A stretch of DNA of 32,000 bases from Mycoplasma mobile 163K. Its GTDB lineage: Bacteria; Bacillota_I; Bacilli_A; Mycoplasmatales; Metamycoplasmataceae. Below, one piece after another: positions 13,022 to 29,345 of this stretch (its first letter is position 1; every line of letters starts with the position of its first letter). Made by a program: the position numbers and the translations under genes. The notes under the pieces are model-generated. The model was given only the letters and a program-made list of their open reading frames with translations. It was not told the origin of the DNA and did not search any database. The stretch covers positions 690,001-722,000 of the forward strand of contig NC_006908.1 in NCBI RefSeq assembly GCF_000008365.1, given 5' to 3'.

Positions 13022-13264
13022 TTAAAAAAGATTAAATGCTTTTATTTTGAATTGTTGGAAGGATTTTACCAAAGCTACATCTTTTTCAACATTTTCAAAT
13101 CTATTTTTAATTTTATCTAATCTTAAATTTATACTTTTTGAAAGATTTTCAATTGCATTTAAAATATTTTGATTTGATTTTGTAGATTCTTTTTGATAAA
13201 AACTTCTCCGTAATATATTTATAAGAATTACCTCATTAAAAATTTCTTCTAATTTTATAGACAC
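13022..13264 (-). pseudogene. degenerate paralog of the coiled-coil gene at 13275..13613
   Basis: Shares ...KLEEIFN...KSNQNILNAIENLSKSINLRLDKI.NR.E.VEKDV with the upstream copy, including a ~46-bp perfect DNA match. It lacks the N-terminal 15 codons and has single-base deletions that scramble NDGNSYKYIIEGVFIKKEA into NEVILINILRRSFYQKES. The C-terminus is also frameshifted (SFQQFKIKAFNLF* instead of LPTIQ...). The only possible start is GTG 13264. Confidence 0.45.
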
Positions 13265-13274
13265 AAAATTATAA

Positions 13275-13613
13275 CTAAATATTTTTAAATTTAAGTTCTT
13301 TTTGAATTGTAGGAAGTGATTTGATAAAAGCAACATCTGATTTTAAAATACTAACATCTTTTTCAACTTTTTCAAGTCTATTTTCAATTTTATCTAATCT
13401 TGTGTTTATACTTTTAGAAAGATTTTCAATTTTAGTATCAAAACTTTTAGAAAGATTTTCAATTGCATTTAAAATATTTTGATTTGATTTTGTAGCTTCT
13501 TTTTTGATAAAAACTCCTTCAATAATATATTTATAAGAATTACCATCATTAAAAATTTCTTCTAATTTTTGAATTTCTGATTTTCTTATTATTTCTAATA
13601 TTTTCTTTTTCAA
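13275..13613 (-). CDS. small coiled-coil protein (112 aa), unknown function, apparently the intact family member
   Basis: TTG start 13613 preceded by AAAGGAG. Heptad-like ENLSKSFDTKIENLSKSINTRLDKIENRLEKVEKDVSILKSDV. Contains a 33-bp internal tandem duplication (21-bp identical cores at 13410..13430 and 13443..13463). Stop TAG 13277..13275. Confidence 0.6.
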   Translation of the reverse strand: MKKKILEIIRKSEIQKLEEIFNDGNSYKYIIEGVFIKKEATKSNQNILNAIENLSKSFDTKIENLSKSINTRLDKIENRLEKVEKDVSILKSDVAFIKSLPTIQKELKFKNI

Positions 13614-14200
13614 TACTTCTCCTTTAATTTTATCTTTTTTGTATAAACTTTTTGAAAAGTTTCAATTTTTTATAGTTTTAAACTTTGTTATTGCAAATTT
13701 AATTCAAGTAAAAATTCTTATGCAATTAGGTAAAACTTACAATTATTCCTTTTTGTTATAGAAATTATTTTTAAAAAATATGGAATGTTCTTAATTTATT
13801 TTTAAAAGACAAATTGAACTTATTTTGTGATTTTTGCTAAGATTTCAATTATCTATTTTCAATAAATTTTTGCTTTAATAGTTTTAATTTCTTAAAATAT
13901 TTTTAAAAATTGATCATAATTTCAAAATTTTCATCTATTACTATATTTTCATAAACAATTATTTATTTTCCCTTTCAATTACAAATAACTTAAAATGAAT
14001 TTTCTCAATGAAAATAATTTTTGAAAATGAAATTTTGAATTTGAAATATTTATCATAGTGCAGATTTAAAATTAAAATGATAATTTACAATAAGTGAAAT
14101 TAGTTTATACACATAGTATTCATAAATTTTAAAGATCTGTTTCAAAAATATTTTAAGAAAAAAGTGATTATTTAACAAATCTTTAATCATATTTATATTA

Positions 14201-14240
14201 TTAAAAGTACTTAATTTTTTTACTAATTAAGTACTTTTAA
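14201..14240. terminator. 16-bp perfect hairpin (possible bidirectional terminator or orphan structure)
   Basis: TTAAAAGTACTTAATT (14201..14216) pairs with AATTAAGTACTTTTAA (14225..14240), 8-nt loop, followed by TTTTCTTTT. Lies just downstream (minus sense) of the coiled-coil remnant. Confidence 0.4.
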
Positions 14241-14253
14241 TTTTCTTTTAAGA

Positions 14254-14329
14254 CTAGATATTTTTAGCTTTGAGTTGTTTTTGAATTGTAGGAAGTAATT
14301 TTATCAAAGCTACATCTTTTCTTTTCCAT
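14254..14329 (-). pseudogene. deletion scar: a 13-nt gene start fused to the last ~63 nt of a coiled-coil family gene
   Basis: The minus strand reads ATGGAAAAGAAAA|GATGTAGCTTTGATAAAATTACTTCCTACAATTCAAAAACAACTCAAAGCTAAAAATATCTAG. The second part encodes DVALIKLLPTIQKQLKAKNI* (compare DVAFIKSLPTIQKELKFKNI* at 13275) but is out of frame with the ATG. Confidence 0.45.
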
Positions 14330-14351
14330 ATATTTTCCTACTTTCTTTGAT

Positions 14352-14780
14352 TTACTTTGATTTTTTAAATCCTTTAATAAATTTAAGAGCATTAAGTGTT
14401 GCGCCTTGATATTCCCCCGTAACTTTCAATGTAAAAGAACCATATTTATCTTGTGAATGAGCAATAGTTTCACCATCAATACTAATATTGAAAGTAACTC
14501 CTTTAATTGGTGGGGGTGTATCAAAGAAATCAGTAAGATTTTCATTTGTAATTTCTGAAGGTAATGTATTACTGATATCAATTTTTGAAACTAAAATTAG
14601 AGATCTAATTGTATCTAAAATAATTTGTCTTTTTCAAAGTACATCAGGACTAACACTTGTTACTGGATCAGTTGTGCTTATACTTGTACTTGTACTTGTA
14701 TTACCACAAGCTACAACAGCAACCATTGGAATTACAACCATTGTCGTTGCTCCTAAACTTAAAAATATTTTCTTTTTCAT
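14352..14780 (-). CDS. lipoprotein (142 aa) with a Lipoprotein_17-like surface domain; the only intact cassette (X)
   Basis: MKKKIFLSLGATTMVVIPMVAVVAC|GNTSTSTSIS: signal peptide plus lipobox Cys. Body ...TLPSEITNENLTDFF...GSFTLKVTGEYQ...IKGFKKSK* matches the pattern of mycoplasma lipoprotein-associated domains. One TGA=Trp. SD-like AAAGGAAAGAGAG upstream. Confidence 0.75.
14638..14688. repeat. inverted repeat IR1-left (partner 15083..15133)
   Basis: 51 bp with 2 mismatches to the reverse complement of 15083..15133. Encodes TSISTTDPVTS(V/A)SPDVL at the start of the mature lipoprotein. Confidence 0.85.
14682..14699. repeat. hexanucleotide microsatellite (ACAAGT)x3 on the coding strand (Thr-Ser repeats)
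   Basis: acttgt x3 perfect on the plus strand, plus a degenerate fourth unit. Sits exactly at the signal-peptide/mature-protein junction of cassette X. Cassette Z has one unit. Confidence 0.8.
14696..14780. repeat. inverted repeat IR2-left (signal-peptide module; partner 15440..15524)
   Basis: 85 bp with 7 mismatches by manual alignment to the reverse complement of 15440..15524. Confidence 0.8.
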
Positions 14781-14814
14781 ATATTTCTCTCTTTCCTTTG
14801 AGTTTTATAACTCA

Positions 14815-14820
14815 ATTATA
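14815..14820 (-). promoter_or_regulatory. candidate -10 box for lipoprotein cassette X
   Basis: The minus strand reads AAAATATAATTGAG, 35-40 nt upstream of ATG 14780. It lies inside the segment bounded by IR1. Confidence 0.25.
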
Positions 14821-15082
14821 TTTTCTAGTTGTTAGATGTATTTCTAACTAAGCAAGCAAAATAATTATAAAAGTATTTCTTTATTATAATTATTTTATCT
14901 AAACTTTTTTAATTTGAATAAAAAGTAAAAAATCGTTGTCTCACTCTTATAATTTTATCATTAAACTCATAAGAAAATAATATTAATTATTTTTGTTTTT
15001 ATTTTGAAAGAAAGTAATATTTTTTAAATTTTGATTTATTTTAGGAAAGCAAAATTGTTTCAATATTTTATTTTCTTTATCT

Positions 15083-15418
15083 ACAAGTATAAGTACAACT
15101 GATCCAGTAACAAGTGCTAGTCCTGATGTACTTGCAAAAAGAGGAGTAATTCTATCTGCAATTGATAAGGTAATTTTTAATCCAATAGGTGATTTTGCAA
15201 ATACCTTACCTTCTCAAGTTAATAATGAAACTTTAAATCAATTTATAAAAACACCAGATTCAATTAATGGAGTAAGTTTTATTGTCAGTATTGATGACGA
15301 AGCAATTAAAAGTTCAAGTGATAAACAAGGTGTATTAGTAATTAGAGTAAGTGGAACATTAGATGGTGTATAAAATCAAAGTATTATAACTATTGGTGGT
15401 TTTAAAAAATCAGAGTAA
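15083..15418 (+). pseudogene. 5'-truncated lipoprotein cassette Z (no start, no signal peptide; in-frame TAA 15371)
   Basis: Begins exactly at TSISTTDPVTSASPDVL..., continues ...TLPSQVNNETLNQFIKTPDSINGVSFIVSIDDEAIKSSSDKQGVLVIRVSGTLDGV*NQSIITIGGFKKSE*. Paralogous to X along its whole mature length. Opposite orientation to X. Confidence 0.65.
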
Positions 15419-15439
15419 ATCAAAGAAGGTAAGAGGATT

Positions 15440-15550
15440 ATGAAAAAGAAAATGTTTTTAGGTTTAGGAGCAACAACAATGGTTGCAATTCCGATGGTTG
15501 CTGTAGTTGCTTGTGGTAATACAATATTTAAATATTCTTTTAATTTTTAA
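15440..15550 (+). pseudogene. orphan lipoprotein signal-peptide module W (36 codons) lacking a mature domain
   Basis: MKKKMFLGLGATTMVAIPMVAVVACGNT then unrelated IFKYSFNF*. Has its own SD (AAGGTAAGAGG). Homology to X stops at GGTAATACAA. Confidence 0.55.
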
Positions 15551-15615
15551 ATAGTTTTTCAAAAGATTATTAATTAAATACAAAATTTTGCTAAATTACT
15601 CTAAAAATAAAATTT

Positions 15616-15655
15616 AAAAATACAAAATAGTCCAATAGGACTATTTTGTATTTTT
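15616..15655. terminator. strong bidirectional intrinsic terminator
   Basis: 18-bp perfect stem AAAAATACAAAATAGTCC / GGACTATTTTGTATTTTT, 4-nt loop, A/T runs on both sides. Overlaps the last codons of the thioredoxin-like gene. Confidence 0.7.
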
Positions 15656-15991
15656 AAGAGCCTCTTCGACTCATTCTACTAATAATTCTTTAGGAAAGTA
15701 TTCAAATCCTTTTCTAAAAATTTCATTATTTTTTAAGACAATGTGTGTAGGAATTCTTAAAACTTCTCATTTATTTCCTGTTACTTTTCATAGACCTGAT
15801 TCTTCAGCATCTACTCTTAAAAATTTTACTTTATCATTATTTTTAAAATGATCTACAAATTCTTCTACAACAGGCGCCATTGCTCTACAATCTCCACAAG
15901 TCTCTGTTGCAAATTCTAAGTAAATGACTCTATTGTGATTTTTTTCAATAAAATCTTGTGCATCTTTTCATTTGTAAGTTTGTAATGACAT
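15641..15991 (-). CDS. thioredoxin-fold protein with a CGDC active-site motif (116 aa)
   Basis: Minus-strand ATG 15991 to TAG 15643..15641, with four TGA=Trp codons. EFATETCGDCRAMAPVVEEF, then cis-Pro region RIPTHIVL. Missing from the ORF track because of the TGA codons. Confidence 0.7.
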
Positions 15992-26179: not shown

Positions 26180-27982
26180 TTATTTCTTTTTTAATTTGTG
26201 ACTTGCTGTACGGGCATTTTCTCAAATAATTTCACTGAAAGTAGGGTGAGGGTGTATTGCATTAGCAATTTCATGAACTGTTGTTTCTAAATCTATAGCA
26301 ACAACTAATTCACTAATTAAATCAGTTGCATGTGCTCCAATAATATGAGCTCCTAAAATTTCATGAGTTTCTTTATCAATAATTAATTTAGAAAAACCCA
26401 TTGTTTGATCTGATGCAATTGCTTTTCCAATAAATTTCATTTGATGTTTTTCAGAAATATATGCTCTACCACTTTCTTTTGCTTGTCTTTCGGACATTCC
26501 TACAGAAGCAATTTCAGGATGTGTGTAAATACATGCTGGGACTGTTTTACCTGTATAAGATAGATCTCCGTTTCCTAAAAGATGTTTTATTGCAATGTGA
26601 GCATGTTGATAAGCGACATGAGCAAGCATAGTTTTAAAAGTGACATCCCCAATTGCGTAAGCTCCTGGAATATTTGTTTGACAAAATTCATTAATAACAA
26701 TTTCGCCTTTTTCACCAATTTGATATCCGACTTCTTTTGCATTAGCAATGACTGGAATTCTACCAACTGAGACCATAATTTTTGAAGCCTTAATTGTTTT
26801 AGCTTCTCCGTTTACTTTGTAATGTAAAGTATCTTTTTCAATTTTAACAGTTTCTGCATTATAAACAATTTGGATTCCTGAACTTATTAATTTATCAGAT
26901 AAAACTTTAATAACATCTTCATCCAAAGCAGGAATGATTGTTGGAGCATTTTGAATAACTGTTACTTTAGAACCTGACGCTGCAAAAATTTGAGCAAATT
27001 CAATTCCAATAACTCCTCCACCAATAATTACTAATTCTTTTGGTAAAGATTCAATTTGAATTGCTTCTTCAGCTGTAATTGCAAATCCTGATTTATAAGC
27101 TTCTTCAAAACCTGGCAAAGTTAATTTTCTATTTTTTGAACCTGTTGCAATAATGATATTTTCAGCTTCATAAATTTCACCATTAACTTGAACAACCTTA
27201 GGCGCTAAAAATTTAGCCTCTCCATTAATGGTTTTAACTTTGTTCCCCTTCATAAGAGCAAGAACACCACCAACAAGAGTATTAACAACTTTTTGCTTTC
27301 TTTCTTGCATTTTTTTTCAATTCATTTTAAGTTTAGAAACATCAATATCTAATCCATAATCTGAAGCGTGTGAAAGTTGCTCGAACACTTCTGTTGATTT
27401 TAATAAAGCTTTTGTTGGAATACATCCCACATTAAGACATACTCCTCCTCAATATTCTTTTTCAATAATCAGAGTTTTTTTACCATTTTTACCAGCTTCT
27501 TCAGCAGCTAAATACCCACCAGGACCACTACCTAAAACAATAACATCATATTTATCAGTGATTTTCCCATTAAAAGATGTTGGTTGAATAGATGTTGATG
27601 ATGTAGGAGTACTTGAAGTTTTTTTTCCAAAAGACATAACTTCATCTGAAACAGCAACTTCTCCAACTACAGAAGCTCCACCACCTGCTTTTTTAGGAGC
27701 TTCTGCTTTTATTTCGGCAGGTTTAACTTCAATAGATTGTGAAGATGAACCATCATCAATGTAGTAAATTTCTTGACCAACATGAATTGTATCACCTTGA
27801 GCCATTGCTACTTTAACAATTTTTCCTGTAGCAGGAGAAGGAATATCAGAAGTTACTTTATCTGTTTCAACAGAAAATAAAGCTTCTCCTTCTTTTACCA
27901 TATCTCCTTCTTTTTTATAAATTTCAGCTACAAGACCTTCATGAAGTCCTTCACCAATATCTGCAAATTTAAATTTAAACAT
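26180..27982 (-). CDS. pdhD: dihydrolipoyl dehydrogenase (E3) with an N-terminal lipoyl domain (600 aa)
   Basis: ORFs 27449..27982 and 26222..27310 join in frame across TGA codons. Lipoyl motif [13 protein letters not shown], linker [18 protein letters not shown] motif VLGSGPGGY, redox disulfide [14 protein letters not shown]-terminal [11 protein letters not shown] 26222 read as Trp extends to TAA 26182..26180. Confidence 0.9.
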
Positions 27983-27983
27983 T

Positions 27984-29345
27984 TTAAAACACTCCTAATA
28001 GTTCTGGGTTTTCTAAAAAGTGTTTTACTTTTTGAGCAAATCTTCCAATTGTAGCCCCATCAACTCATCTATGATCTGCTGCAACAGTAAGATTCATAAT
28101 TTTACCTGCAACAATTCCATTTTTTGTAACAATTGGTTCATCTTTAATTACACCAATACCAGCAATTGCCATATCAGGATAATTAATAACAGGAATTCCG
28201 AATAACGAACCTACAGAAGCATAATTTGTAACTGTAAAATCACTTCCTTTTAGTTCATCTGCCTTGATTTTTTTATCTCTAGCAGCAACTGCAAGTCTAG
28301 TAATTTCTTTAGCAATTTCAATTATATTTAGTTTATCTGCATTTTTTATAACAGGAACCATTAGTCCTGCTTCGGTATCGACTGCAATTCCAATATTTAA
28401 AGTTCCTGAATAAACTAGTTCGCTTGCTTGTTCATCATATTTAGCCATTAAAACAGGAAATTCTTTTAATGCTAAAGTTATAGCTTTAATTATAAAAGGT
28501 AAAAAAGTTACTTTAACTCCAGTTAAATCTTGAACGGAATCTTTAATTTTTTCTCTTAAAGAAACTAGAGAACCAACATTAATTTCATTTACTAAATTAG
28601 TATAAGCAACATTTGATCAAGAATTTTTCATTGCTTTTGCAATAGCTTTTCTAATAGGAGTCACTTTTTCTCTTTTTAATTCATTAGCTAAAGAAATCAA
28701 AGGTTGAACTTGAGAATTTGAAACAGCTTTTTCAACATTTTGTTGAATTTGTTGAATGGAAACTGGTTTTGAAACAATCTCAGGGCTTTGTCCTAACATT
28801 TTAGCTCTTGCTAATGCTCTTCTGTTTGAAGATTCACTACTGTTTAAAGTATTTGTTTCAAAAACAACACTTTGTCCTAACATTTTAGCTCTTGCTAATG
28901 CTCTTCTGTTCTCAGGCGTTGCAGAAATGCTTGCACTTTGAACTATTTCTCTTGGAGAAACTTGAGATTGAGAATTTGAAGAATTACTATTTACTCTTCC
29001 AAAAGACATGACTTCATCTGAAACAGCAACTTCCCCAACAACAGAAGCTCCTCCCCCACCTGCTTTTTTAGGTGCTTCTGTTTTTATTCCAACAGAAGAA
29101 CTTGATGATGAACCATCTTCAATCTGGTAAATCTCTTGACCAACATGAATTGTATCACCTTTGAACATTGCTACTTTAATAATTTTTCCTGTAACAGGAG
29201 AAGGAATATCAGAAGTTACTTTATCTGTTTCCACAGAAAATAAAGCTTCTCCTTCTTTTACCATATCTCCTTCTTTTTTATAAATTTCGGCTACTACACC
29301 TTCGTGAAGTCCTTCACCAATATCTGCAAATTTAAATTTAAACAT
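27984..29345 (-). CDS. pdhC: dihydrolipoamide acetyltransferase (E2) copy 1: lipoyl domain + repeat-containing linker + catalytic domain (453 aa); chimeric pdhD-5'/pdhC-3'
   Basis: ORFs 28617..29345 and 28065..28448 plus a tail join across TGA (1362 nt = 454 codons). Lipoyl [13 protein letters not shown]. No canonical PSBD, only a duplicated (E/S)[14 protein letters not shown]. Catalytic DHRWVDGA. Stop TAA 27986..27984, one nt before the pdhD ATG. Confidence 0.85.
28228..28391. repeat. 164-bp perfect direct repeat, copy A (partner 29590..29753)
   Basis: Identical base for base to 29590..29753 by manual comparison, offset 1362 nt. Encodes [47 protein letters not shown] in both E2 genes. Confidence 0.85.
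28786..28826. repeat. 41-bp perfect direct repeat, copy 1 (partner 28870..28910; period 84 bp = 28 codons)
   Basis: ctttgtcctaacattttagctcttgctaatgctcttctgtt occurs twice. Encodes [14 protein letters not shown] in the E2 copy-1 linker. Confidence 0.9.
28870..28910. repeat. 41-bp perfect direct repeat, copy 2
   Basis: Identical to 28786..28826. Confidence 0.9.

Follow-up and report, generated by a model that had tools for sequence, protein, structure and literature searches.

A 32,000-nucleotide (nt) stretch of the Mycoplasma mobile 163K chromosome (contig NC_006908.1, positions 690,001 to 722,000; hereafter the window) contains, in the interval between thrS and trx, three pieces of one lipoprotein family: an intact gene (X), a start-less body on the opposite strand (Z) and a signal peptide without a body (W). 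The open reading frames (ORFs) of X and Z have exact database matches in the M. mobile 163K genome (777,079 bp), a species which the current NCBI taxonomy places in Mesomycoplasma, family Metamycoplasmataceae. The window has a GC content of 26% and its long ORFs are broken by TGA alone, and these were therefore retranslated with genetic code 4 (TGA = Trp). The features of the locus, in window coordinates, are collected in Table 1.

Table 1. Features of the X/Z/W lipoprotein locus and its flanks (SD, Shine-Dalgarno sequence; aa, amino acids)
Feature	Coordinates	Strand	Description
X	14352..14780	-	Intact 142-aa lipoprotein gene; code-4 translation, PF04200 match
X signal peptide and lipobox	14697..14780	-	Codons 1-28, ending ...VVAC-GNT; translation
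Promoter-like site of X	14883..14912	-	TTAAAA, 18-nt spacer, TATAAT; ~100 nt upstream of the ATG
Candidate invertible expression module	14689..15081	.	393 nt between the repeat arms: SD, start codon and signal peptide of X, upstream region
(TACAAG)x3 tract	14683..14700	-	Encodes (T)STSTS; W and Z homology both end here; proposed crossover region
Z	15083..15373	+	5'-truncated Lipoprotein_17 body without start codon or signal peptide, ending at a premature TAA
Z relic end	15374..15418	+	Last 14 codons NQSIITIGGFKKSE and original stop, in frame past the premature TAA
SD and W signal peptide	15422..15524	+	103-nt repeat with X, 85%; X homology ends at TACAA 15520-15524
W ORF	15440..15550	+	36 aa; beyond the signal peptide and lipobox it reads into unrelated sequence, IFKYSFNF*
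V'	14314..14353	-	SD, ATG and 4 codons, downstream of X; cut at ~codon 5, not at TACAA
Coiled-coil fragment fused to V'	14253..14317	-	Duplicates, at 85% identity over 65 nt, the 3' end of a coiled-coil ORF family (13022-13613)
17-bp hairpin	14200..14241	-	Downstream of X, V' and the coiled-coil fragment; -16.5 kcal/mol, z = -4.8
Inverted repeat, SD and signal peptides	14696-14798 vs 15422-15524		103 nt, 85% complementary
Inverted repeat, body 5' ends	14607-14688 (X) vs 15082-15163 (Z)	- / +	82 nt, 85% complementary
Inverted repeat, body 3' ends and downstream SD	14336-14386 vs 15384-15434		51 nt, 80% complementary

X is identical to AAT28056/WP_011265090/Q6KH74, which the original proteogenomic annotation (GenBank, UniProt) labels 'Expressed putative lipoprotein'; NCBI labels X and Z alike 'lipoprotein 17-related variable surface protein'. 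The Lipoprotein_17 profile (PF04200) matches X at 54.8 bits over positions 2-84 of 84 and Z at 43.9 bits over positions 5-70, both exceeding the Pfam gathering threshold of 22.4 bits. The X signal peptide is MKKKIFLSLGATTMVVIPMVAVVAC, with the lipobox at its end, and X and W both have the predicted signature of lipoproteins processed by signal peptidase II (MKKK..., a hydrophobic stretch and VVAC-G); the NCBIfam mycoplasma lipoprotein signal models match these two signals weakly, under their cut-offs. In the X/Z/W set only X combines an SD, an ATG, a signal peptide and a promoter-like site, the last being a consensus match only, of a kind no commoner in the region than expected from shuffled sequence. 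A single-sequence AlphaFold model of X was unusable (pLDDT, the predicted local distance difference test score, of 32), and a sequence search for a homologue of X with a solved structure found none. A 135-aa lipoprotein from the metagenome-assembled genome Bacillota bacterium OH_CDB_63 (JAEZLH010000024; 38% GC, code 11) has a signal peptide that resembles that of X by chance and is unrelated.

Read through to its original stop (15083..15418), Z aligns without gaps to X codons 32-143, with an in-frame TAA at 15371-15373 that corresponds to X codon 128. Lost to this stop are profile positions 71-84 and the conserved '..GF' ending, the last conserved strand, which closes every repeat compared among the Mvsp proteins, the Lipoprotein_17 surface family of M. 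mobile. A silent cassette would require a complete functional mature domain, which Z lacks. The sequence preceding Z contains neither an SD nor a lipobox, neither a promoter-like match on the plus strand nor a decayed signal peptide, alignment scores there being those of the shuffled null. The RefSeq version of Z (WP_041362981) is a 126-aa ORF from a TTG at 14993, without SD or lipobox; its first 30 residues (MFLFWKKVIFFKFWFILGKQNC..., 14993-15082, plus strand) are translated intergenic DNA, and this N-terminus is probably an annotation artefact. Expression of Z alone from the RefSeq TTG was considered and rejected, for want of an SD, a lipobox or a promoter match. Unlike X, Z has no GenBank protein in the original proteogenomic annotation, a naming contrast that may be counted as a sign of fixation or decay. 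Across its 112 codons Z has no frameshift and one stop, where ~3.5 stops are estimated under neutrality.

W (15440..15524) differs from X codons 1-28 at 7 of 84 nt (dS 0.25 and dN 0.05, the synonymous and nonsynonymous divergence), is annotated as a gene in Logan assemblies only, and has in common with X alone the 16-mer GCTTGTGGTAATACAA. No decayed body is found downstream of W, the alignment scores again equalling the shuffled null. On the other side of the locus, V' is a direct repeat of 14765-14804 (80% identical), the alignment of X to the Z-W region continuing beyond the X stop into another SD-ATG-Lys-Lys start. Behind each of the two bodies, X and Z, there is thus an SD with the beginning of a further gene, as is characteristic of tandem arrays, and V' with its 65-nt coiled-coil copy, standing beside the other duplicated pieces, makes the thrS-trx interval a patchwork of duplicated fragments. 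The hairpin farther downstream is a possible transcription terminator. An initial annotation of this DNA had named X as the only complete member, Z as a mature domain lacking start and signal peptide and bearing a TAA 14 codons before its end, and W as an SD and signal peptide lacking a body; each of these descriptions is borne out.

Three inverted repeats, recovered here by a repeat finder, connect the two strands of the locus. The core of the one joining the body 5' ends (14638-14688 vs 15083-15133) spans 51 nt with 2 mismatches, as initially annotated, and it includes a 22-nt perfect stretch (14654-14675 in X) that occurs at these two sites only in the window (0 expected by chance). Its arms bracket the sole promoter and signal peptide module, as had also been proposed, no SD, signal or promoter match being present at Z. 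Both arms read TSISTTDPVTS in frame, so a crossover at any point in the repeat yields a fused ORF.

The Z arm opens with TACAAG at 15082-15087. The homology of W to X ends at GGTAATACAA, and that of Z begins at TACAAGTATAAG. X holds three TACAAG units at this point, so that on X the W and Z breakpoints, though each coincides with a TACAA(G) unit, are separated by 12 nt. The two sharp truncations thus have the repeated unit in common and not the nucleotide; the initial claim of a single TACAA common to both breakpoints is right as to the motif following the lipobox and needs correction as to the exact position. For two random, independent breakpoints to fall within ~5 nt of each other in a gene of 429 nt, we estimate a probability of ~0.02. 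TACAA itself is present in 132 copies in the 32 kb (~1 per 240 nt), and TACAAGTA occurs 7 times in the window (1.1 expected), with 4 of the 7 within X or Z. TACAAG was also considered as a family-wide feature and rejected, being absent from MvspH and from the M. mobile paralogue Q6KHD5.

The divergence between X and Z is distributed very unevenly. In the body (codons 49-128) 95 of 240 nt differ (39.6%; dS 0.57, dN 0.55, dN/dS ~1), and in the 51-nt repeat 2 of 51 (dS 0.08, dN 0.03); at the divergence of the body, two or fewer differences in 51 nt have p = 4e-9. Codons 1-48 taken together differ at 9 of 135 nt, compared with the 95 of 240 in the body (p = 2e-18), and the conservation extends to synonymous sites, of which 5 of ~32 are changed in codons 1-48 compared with 40% in the body (p = 0.003); those of the 51-nt repeat are likewise conserved relative to the body (p = 0.013). 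The identity of the repeat does not differ significantly from that of the X and W signal peptides (Fisher p = 0.48). This pattern is most simply read as a single 5' block, conserved between the SD and codon 48, with a divergent domain behind it, an arrangement usual in variable lipoprotein families. Since the repeat is only as conserved as the X-W signal block, its identity is weak evidence of recent exchange between the inverted arms; the proposal that the 96% repeat identity proves such exchange was rejected on the same ground.

X and Z have their best remote relatives in MvspA, MvspM, MvspN and MvspH, with which they share the Lipoprotein_17 domain. They differ from the Mvsp proteins in having one domain each (up to 16 in Mvsps) and in not being named Mvsp in the original annotation. 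MvspP, to which the Gli123 preprint assigns a single domain (residues 30-139), may correspond to X or else to Q6KHD5 (176 aa). The DNA of the Q6KHD5 signal peptide is ~80% identical to W and X only up to GCTTGTGG (the Cys-Gly codons) and unrelated thereafter, and MvspH differs from the X/W/Z 5' block throughout. The linker is thus unlike that of either protein, and the conserved 5' block, with its TACAAG tract, is therefore specific to this small subfamily. No DNA-rearrangement mechanism for Mvsps is reported in the literature searched. Tandem Lipoprotein_17 genes are present elsewhere in the M. mobile genome; in one example Q6KHD5/AAT27995 (176 aa) is followed by a 163-aa Lipoprotein_17 gene, downstream of two ATP-binding cassette (ABC) transporter genes, and Q6KHD5 is also seen in a Logan contig of SRR4046664 (gene at 64-594) and in an 8-kb contig of SRR29904083.

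Among published designs, the closest is the phase-variable UU172 element, described with the mba locus, of Ureaplasma parvum and U. urealyticum (Zimmerman et al. 2011), and Ureaplasma likewise has Lipoprotein_17 proteins. Each system pairs two opposed ORFs, with promoter, start codon and signal peptide confined to one of them; the 5' coding region of this expressed gene contains one repeat, and the second repeat immediately precedes the ORF that lacks a start. In UU172 the repeat of the expressed gene is a 51-nt composite, its two parts being common to two different partners, and switching was measured in 1-2% of cells (PMC3047005). The composite site of X is similarly divided between W and Z, inversion would give in-frame chimeras (shown in Ureaplasma and proposed here), and in neither case is a recombinase adjacent, the UU172 candidates lying elsewhere. 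The two loci differ in that switching is experimentally established for UU172 and the M. mobile locus is known from sequence alone, that the M. mobile silent body has a stop codon and the third site (W) leads to no body, and that the repeats themselves are unrelated, with no obvious similarity to the Ureaplasma 51-nt repeat.

The vsa locus of M. pulmonis, to which the initial annotation had aptly compared this locus, is somewhat more distant in design. In M. pulmonis, vsa has one expression site with promoter, ribosome-binding site and 5' coding region, silent genes without 5' ends, and site-specific inversions that join the expression site to silent bodies (PMC2268961). M. pulmonis belongs to the same family as M. 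mobile and has gliding-machinery genes in common with it, and a single expression site and a 5'-truncated silent copy are common to both loci. The vsa system (HvsR tyrosine recombinase) differs in its scale (714 coding nt and many silent genes, compared with ~90 coding nt and one silent body here) and in having hvsR nearby, whereas there is no recombinase within 14 kb of the M. mobile locus. The vpma genes of M. agalactiae and vsp genes of M. bovis (Xer1/Mbr) also comprise related surface lipoproteins with a conserved 5' block and one active promoter, switched by site-specific inversion; there, recombination takes place at sites within the 5' untranslated region (PMC2268961), and what is exchanged is the entire gene together with its signal peptide. 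In M. mobile the junction is instead inside the coding sequence, after the signal peptide, and the vpma/vsp recombinase is encoded within its locus. The M. mobile locus fits the vsa/UU172 class in structure, having a single module and an inverted, in-frame, 5'-truncated copy, and departs from it in the lack of an intact silent cassette.

The present order of the locus can be written rc(V') rc(bodyX). rc(sigX) rc(P) U. bodyZ SD sigW. junk (rc, reverse complement; P, promoter; dot, TACAAG site). As the likeliest explanation, which we hold tentatively, site-preferring recombination built this order from a tandem array, and in the sequenced strain the system is now fixed or very rarely used and is decaying; the initial annotation had allowed that it might be a fossil, and a relic or rarely used switch is indeed the possibility we rate highest. 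The ancestral array would have been a short one, made up of single-domain, Mvsp-like Lipoprotein_17 genes sharing the 5' block from the SD through codon 48, in the order promoter - signal(X) - TACAAG - body(Z) - SD - signal(W) - TACAAG - body(X) - SD - V'. Two events may then have followed, each crossing in the TACAA(G) after the lipobox codons and each using one secondary TACAA in the upstream spacer. In one route, the W-side site would first recombine with an inverted TACAA in front of the promoter, and this inversion would leave the X body silent and inverted beside the promoter; the sites of the X and Z bodies would then recombine in their turn, and the resulting inversion would give today's order. 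Another route would take two other inversions, and in a third a bodyZ-SD-sigW circle would be excised and re-inserted. These three two-step routes appear equally parsimonious, so that the excision and re-integration of the Z-W unit raised in the initial annotation would be one history among three. No one-step route exists, because W, the fragment cut at the motif, stands behind the silent body Z rather than behind the expressed body of X. The outcome would be an X that is ON, a Z that is a silent, in-frame, inverted cassette and a W that is a dead-end signal peptide; an inversion at the 51-nt repeat would next give signal(X)-body(Z). Every route places all crossovers in TACAA(G), and it is chiefly on this ground that we argue for a mechanism with a site preference. 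The array itself, how many events there were and of what kind, and the part played by a site-specific recombinase are inferred.

As regards present activity, Logan contigs from SRR29904083, SRR29904084 and SRR4046664, which represent at least two submissions, are 100% identical to the window and colinear with it through the proposed junctions. The longest exact repeat (22 nt) is shorter than the Logan assembly k-mer, which we take to be 31, so the repeats alone would not break a contig. Neither a signal(X)-Z nor a signal(W)-X chimeric protein is present in a collection of 15 billion proteins. No site-specific recombinase is encoded among the ORFs of the 32-kb window, that is, within 14 kb of the locus, as the initial annotation had also stated, and no report of DNA inversion or of a recombinase in M. 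mobile was found in the literature searched. The activity of the switch at present is unsupported. The earlier proposal of switching by recombination thus holds for the layout, which is in frame, and not for a working switch, given the one arrangement, the lack of a chimera and the stop in Z. The contigs of two of the Logan runs (including SRR29904083) start exactly at 13744, although other M. mobile contigs of those runs reach 8-50 kb, and the SRR4046664 contig starts at 15398. The shared start at 13744 was considered as a mark of rearrangement and dropped, a repeat boundary of the coiled-coil family, with further copies elsewhere in the genome, being more likely.

Exchange between surface-protein paralogues has a possible precedent in this species. 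A spontaneous MvspI-deficient laboratory mutant of M. mobile has four clustered substitutions in mvspN (MMOB6080), two of them synonymous (10.1101/2022.09.07.507039, Table S4). Such clustering resembles a tract converted from a paralogue more than it does a set of independent point mutations, and suggests that paralogue exchange does occur in M. mobile.

Several points weigh against a site-preferring origin followed by fixation. The family is found in no related strain or species, the homologue search having returned only this locus, and scans of JGI metagenomes with the 22-nt repeat core and with the X mature protein gave no matches. TACAA is so common that the secondary spacer site carries little information, and the 5-nt microhomology there would also fit illegitimate recombination. 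V' is cut elsewhere than at TACAA and is joined to foreign DNA, which means that non-specific rearrangement also acted. As to fixation and decay, Z has one stop and no frameshift and may therefore have been expressed until recently, and since assemblies record the commonest path, switched cells at the 1% level seen in Ureaplasma would not show up in them. An active phase-variation switch, in which a distant recombinase reversibly inverts 14689-15081 so that X alternates with a signal(X)-Z chimera, and inversion at the X-W arms gives an OFF state by running promoter and signal peptide into unrelated sequence, is less likely. Every anatomical requirement of such a switch is present and in frame: the promoter-like TTAAAA-18-TATAAT lies inside the segment that would flip, the X site is composite, partly W-like and partly Z-like, as in the UU172 element (PMC3047005), Z is gapless and in frame with one late stop, and the repeat is conserved at synonymous sites (p = 0.013). 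The same logic operates in M. pulmonis, a relative of the same family (PMC2268961), and one of the parsimonious histories contains this very inversion. However, the three runs agree on one arrangement, databases hold no chimeric ORF, Z has lost its last conserved strand, no recombinase is encoded in the 32 kb, the repeat is no more identical than the signal block, the left half-site of Z and the right half-site of W are unrelated to those of X, and the literature searched holds no report of DNA inversion in M. mobile. In its fullest form, a working three-state switch (X ON; signal(X)-Z ON; OFF via W) with TACAAG as core site, a distant recombinase and Z-SD-W as a re-inserted circle, the proposal is quite unlikely.

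The opposite view, that the locus is non-specific debris, is itself unlikely. Here tandem duplication would have been followed by microhomology recombination or template switching, with (TACAAG)n a fragile hotspot and neither recombinase nor function involved. The position of the V' cut and its fusion to a fragment of another duplicated family, the patchwork character of the thrS-trx interval, the 132 copies of TACAA in 32 kb, the body dN/dS of ~1 and the stop codon in Z all fit this view; it accounts poorly for junctions of two different array members on the same motif and for an in-frame, head-to-head layout round the sole promoter, a coincidence improbable without site preference (~0.02 or less). 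It is for these junctions that site-preferring recombination, now fixed or rarely used, remains the reading we prefer. Alternatively, Z might be a silent gene-conversion donor whose variable middle is copied into X by way of the conserved 5' and 3' 51-nt flanks (the 3' flank 80% identical), much as the vlhA pseudogenes serve M. synoviae and the MgPar elements M. genitalium. Conserved flanks round a divergent centre are consistent with conversion, as is the resemblance of the clustered mvspN substitutions to a conversion tract among mvsp paralogues (10.1101/2022.09.07.507039). Yet there is a single donor, the exact identity of at most 22 nt in the 5' flank and ~14 nt in the 3' flank is short for RecA, and the W breakpoint and the inverted position beside the promoter are left unexplained, so that we regard conversion as very improbable.

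M. mobile is a model organism for mycoplasma gliding, with a surface dominated by Lipoprotein_17 (Mvsp) proteins, whose variation has been described in other terms, as 'antigen modulation'. Were the inversion switch active, this organism would have a genetic means of phase variation, the first one if the three-state form were correct; the vsa/UU172 design would then reach a fish mycoplasma, with an expression module of only ~90 coding nt, and a recombinase with a short core site, TACAAG, would be implied, of potential use in genetic work. Even as a fossil, the locus would record how tandem lipoprotein arrays turn into head-to-head expression-site layouts. Either way it would enlarge a familiar class of systems by a small step; a real switch would belong to an organism for which no such system has been described.

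The coiled-coil ORFs that contributed the fragment fused to V' are tandem paralogues on the minus strand, ~1 kb from V'. One (cc2, 13275-13613) has a TTG start and an AAAGGAG SD, the other (cc1, 13022-13336) is probably frameshifted, and a Pfam search of the two gave no family above threshold. The right limit of the lipoprotein patchwork is an intrinsic terminator after trx, with a perfect 20-bp hairpin and a T-run (15614-15657, minus strand). Elsewhere in the window, two adjacent genes of the pyruvate dehydrogenase cluster (26180-27982 and 27984-29345, both minus strand) have near-identical N-termini of ~50 aa, presumably duplicated lipoyl domains.

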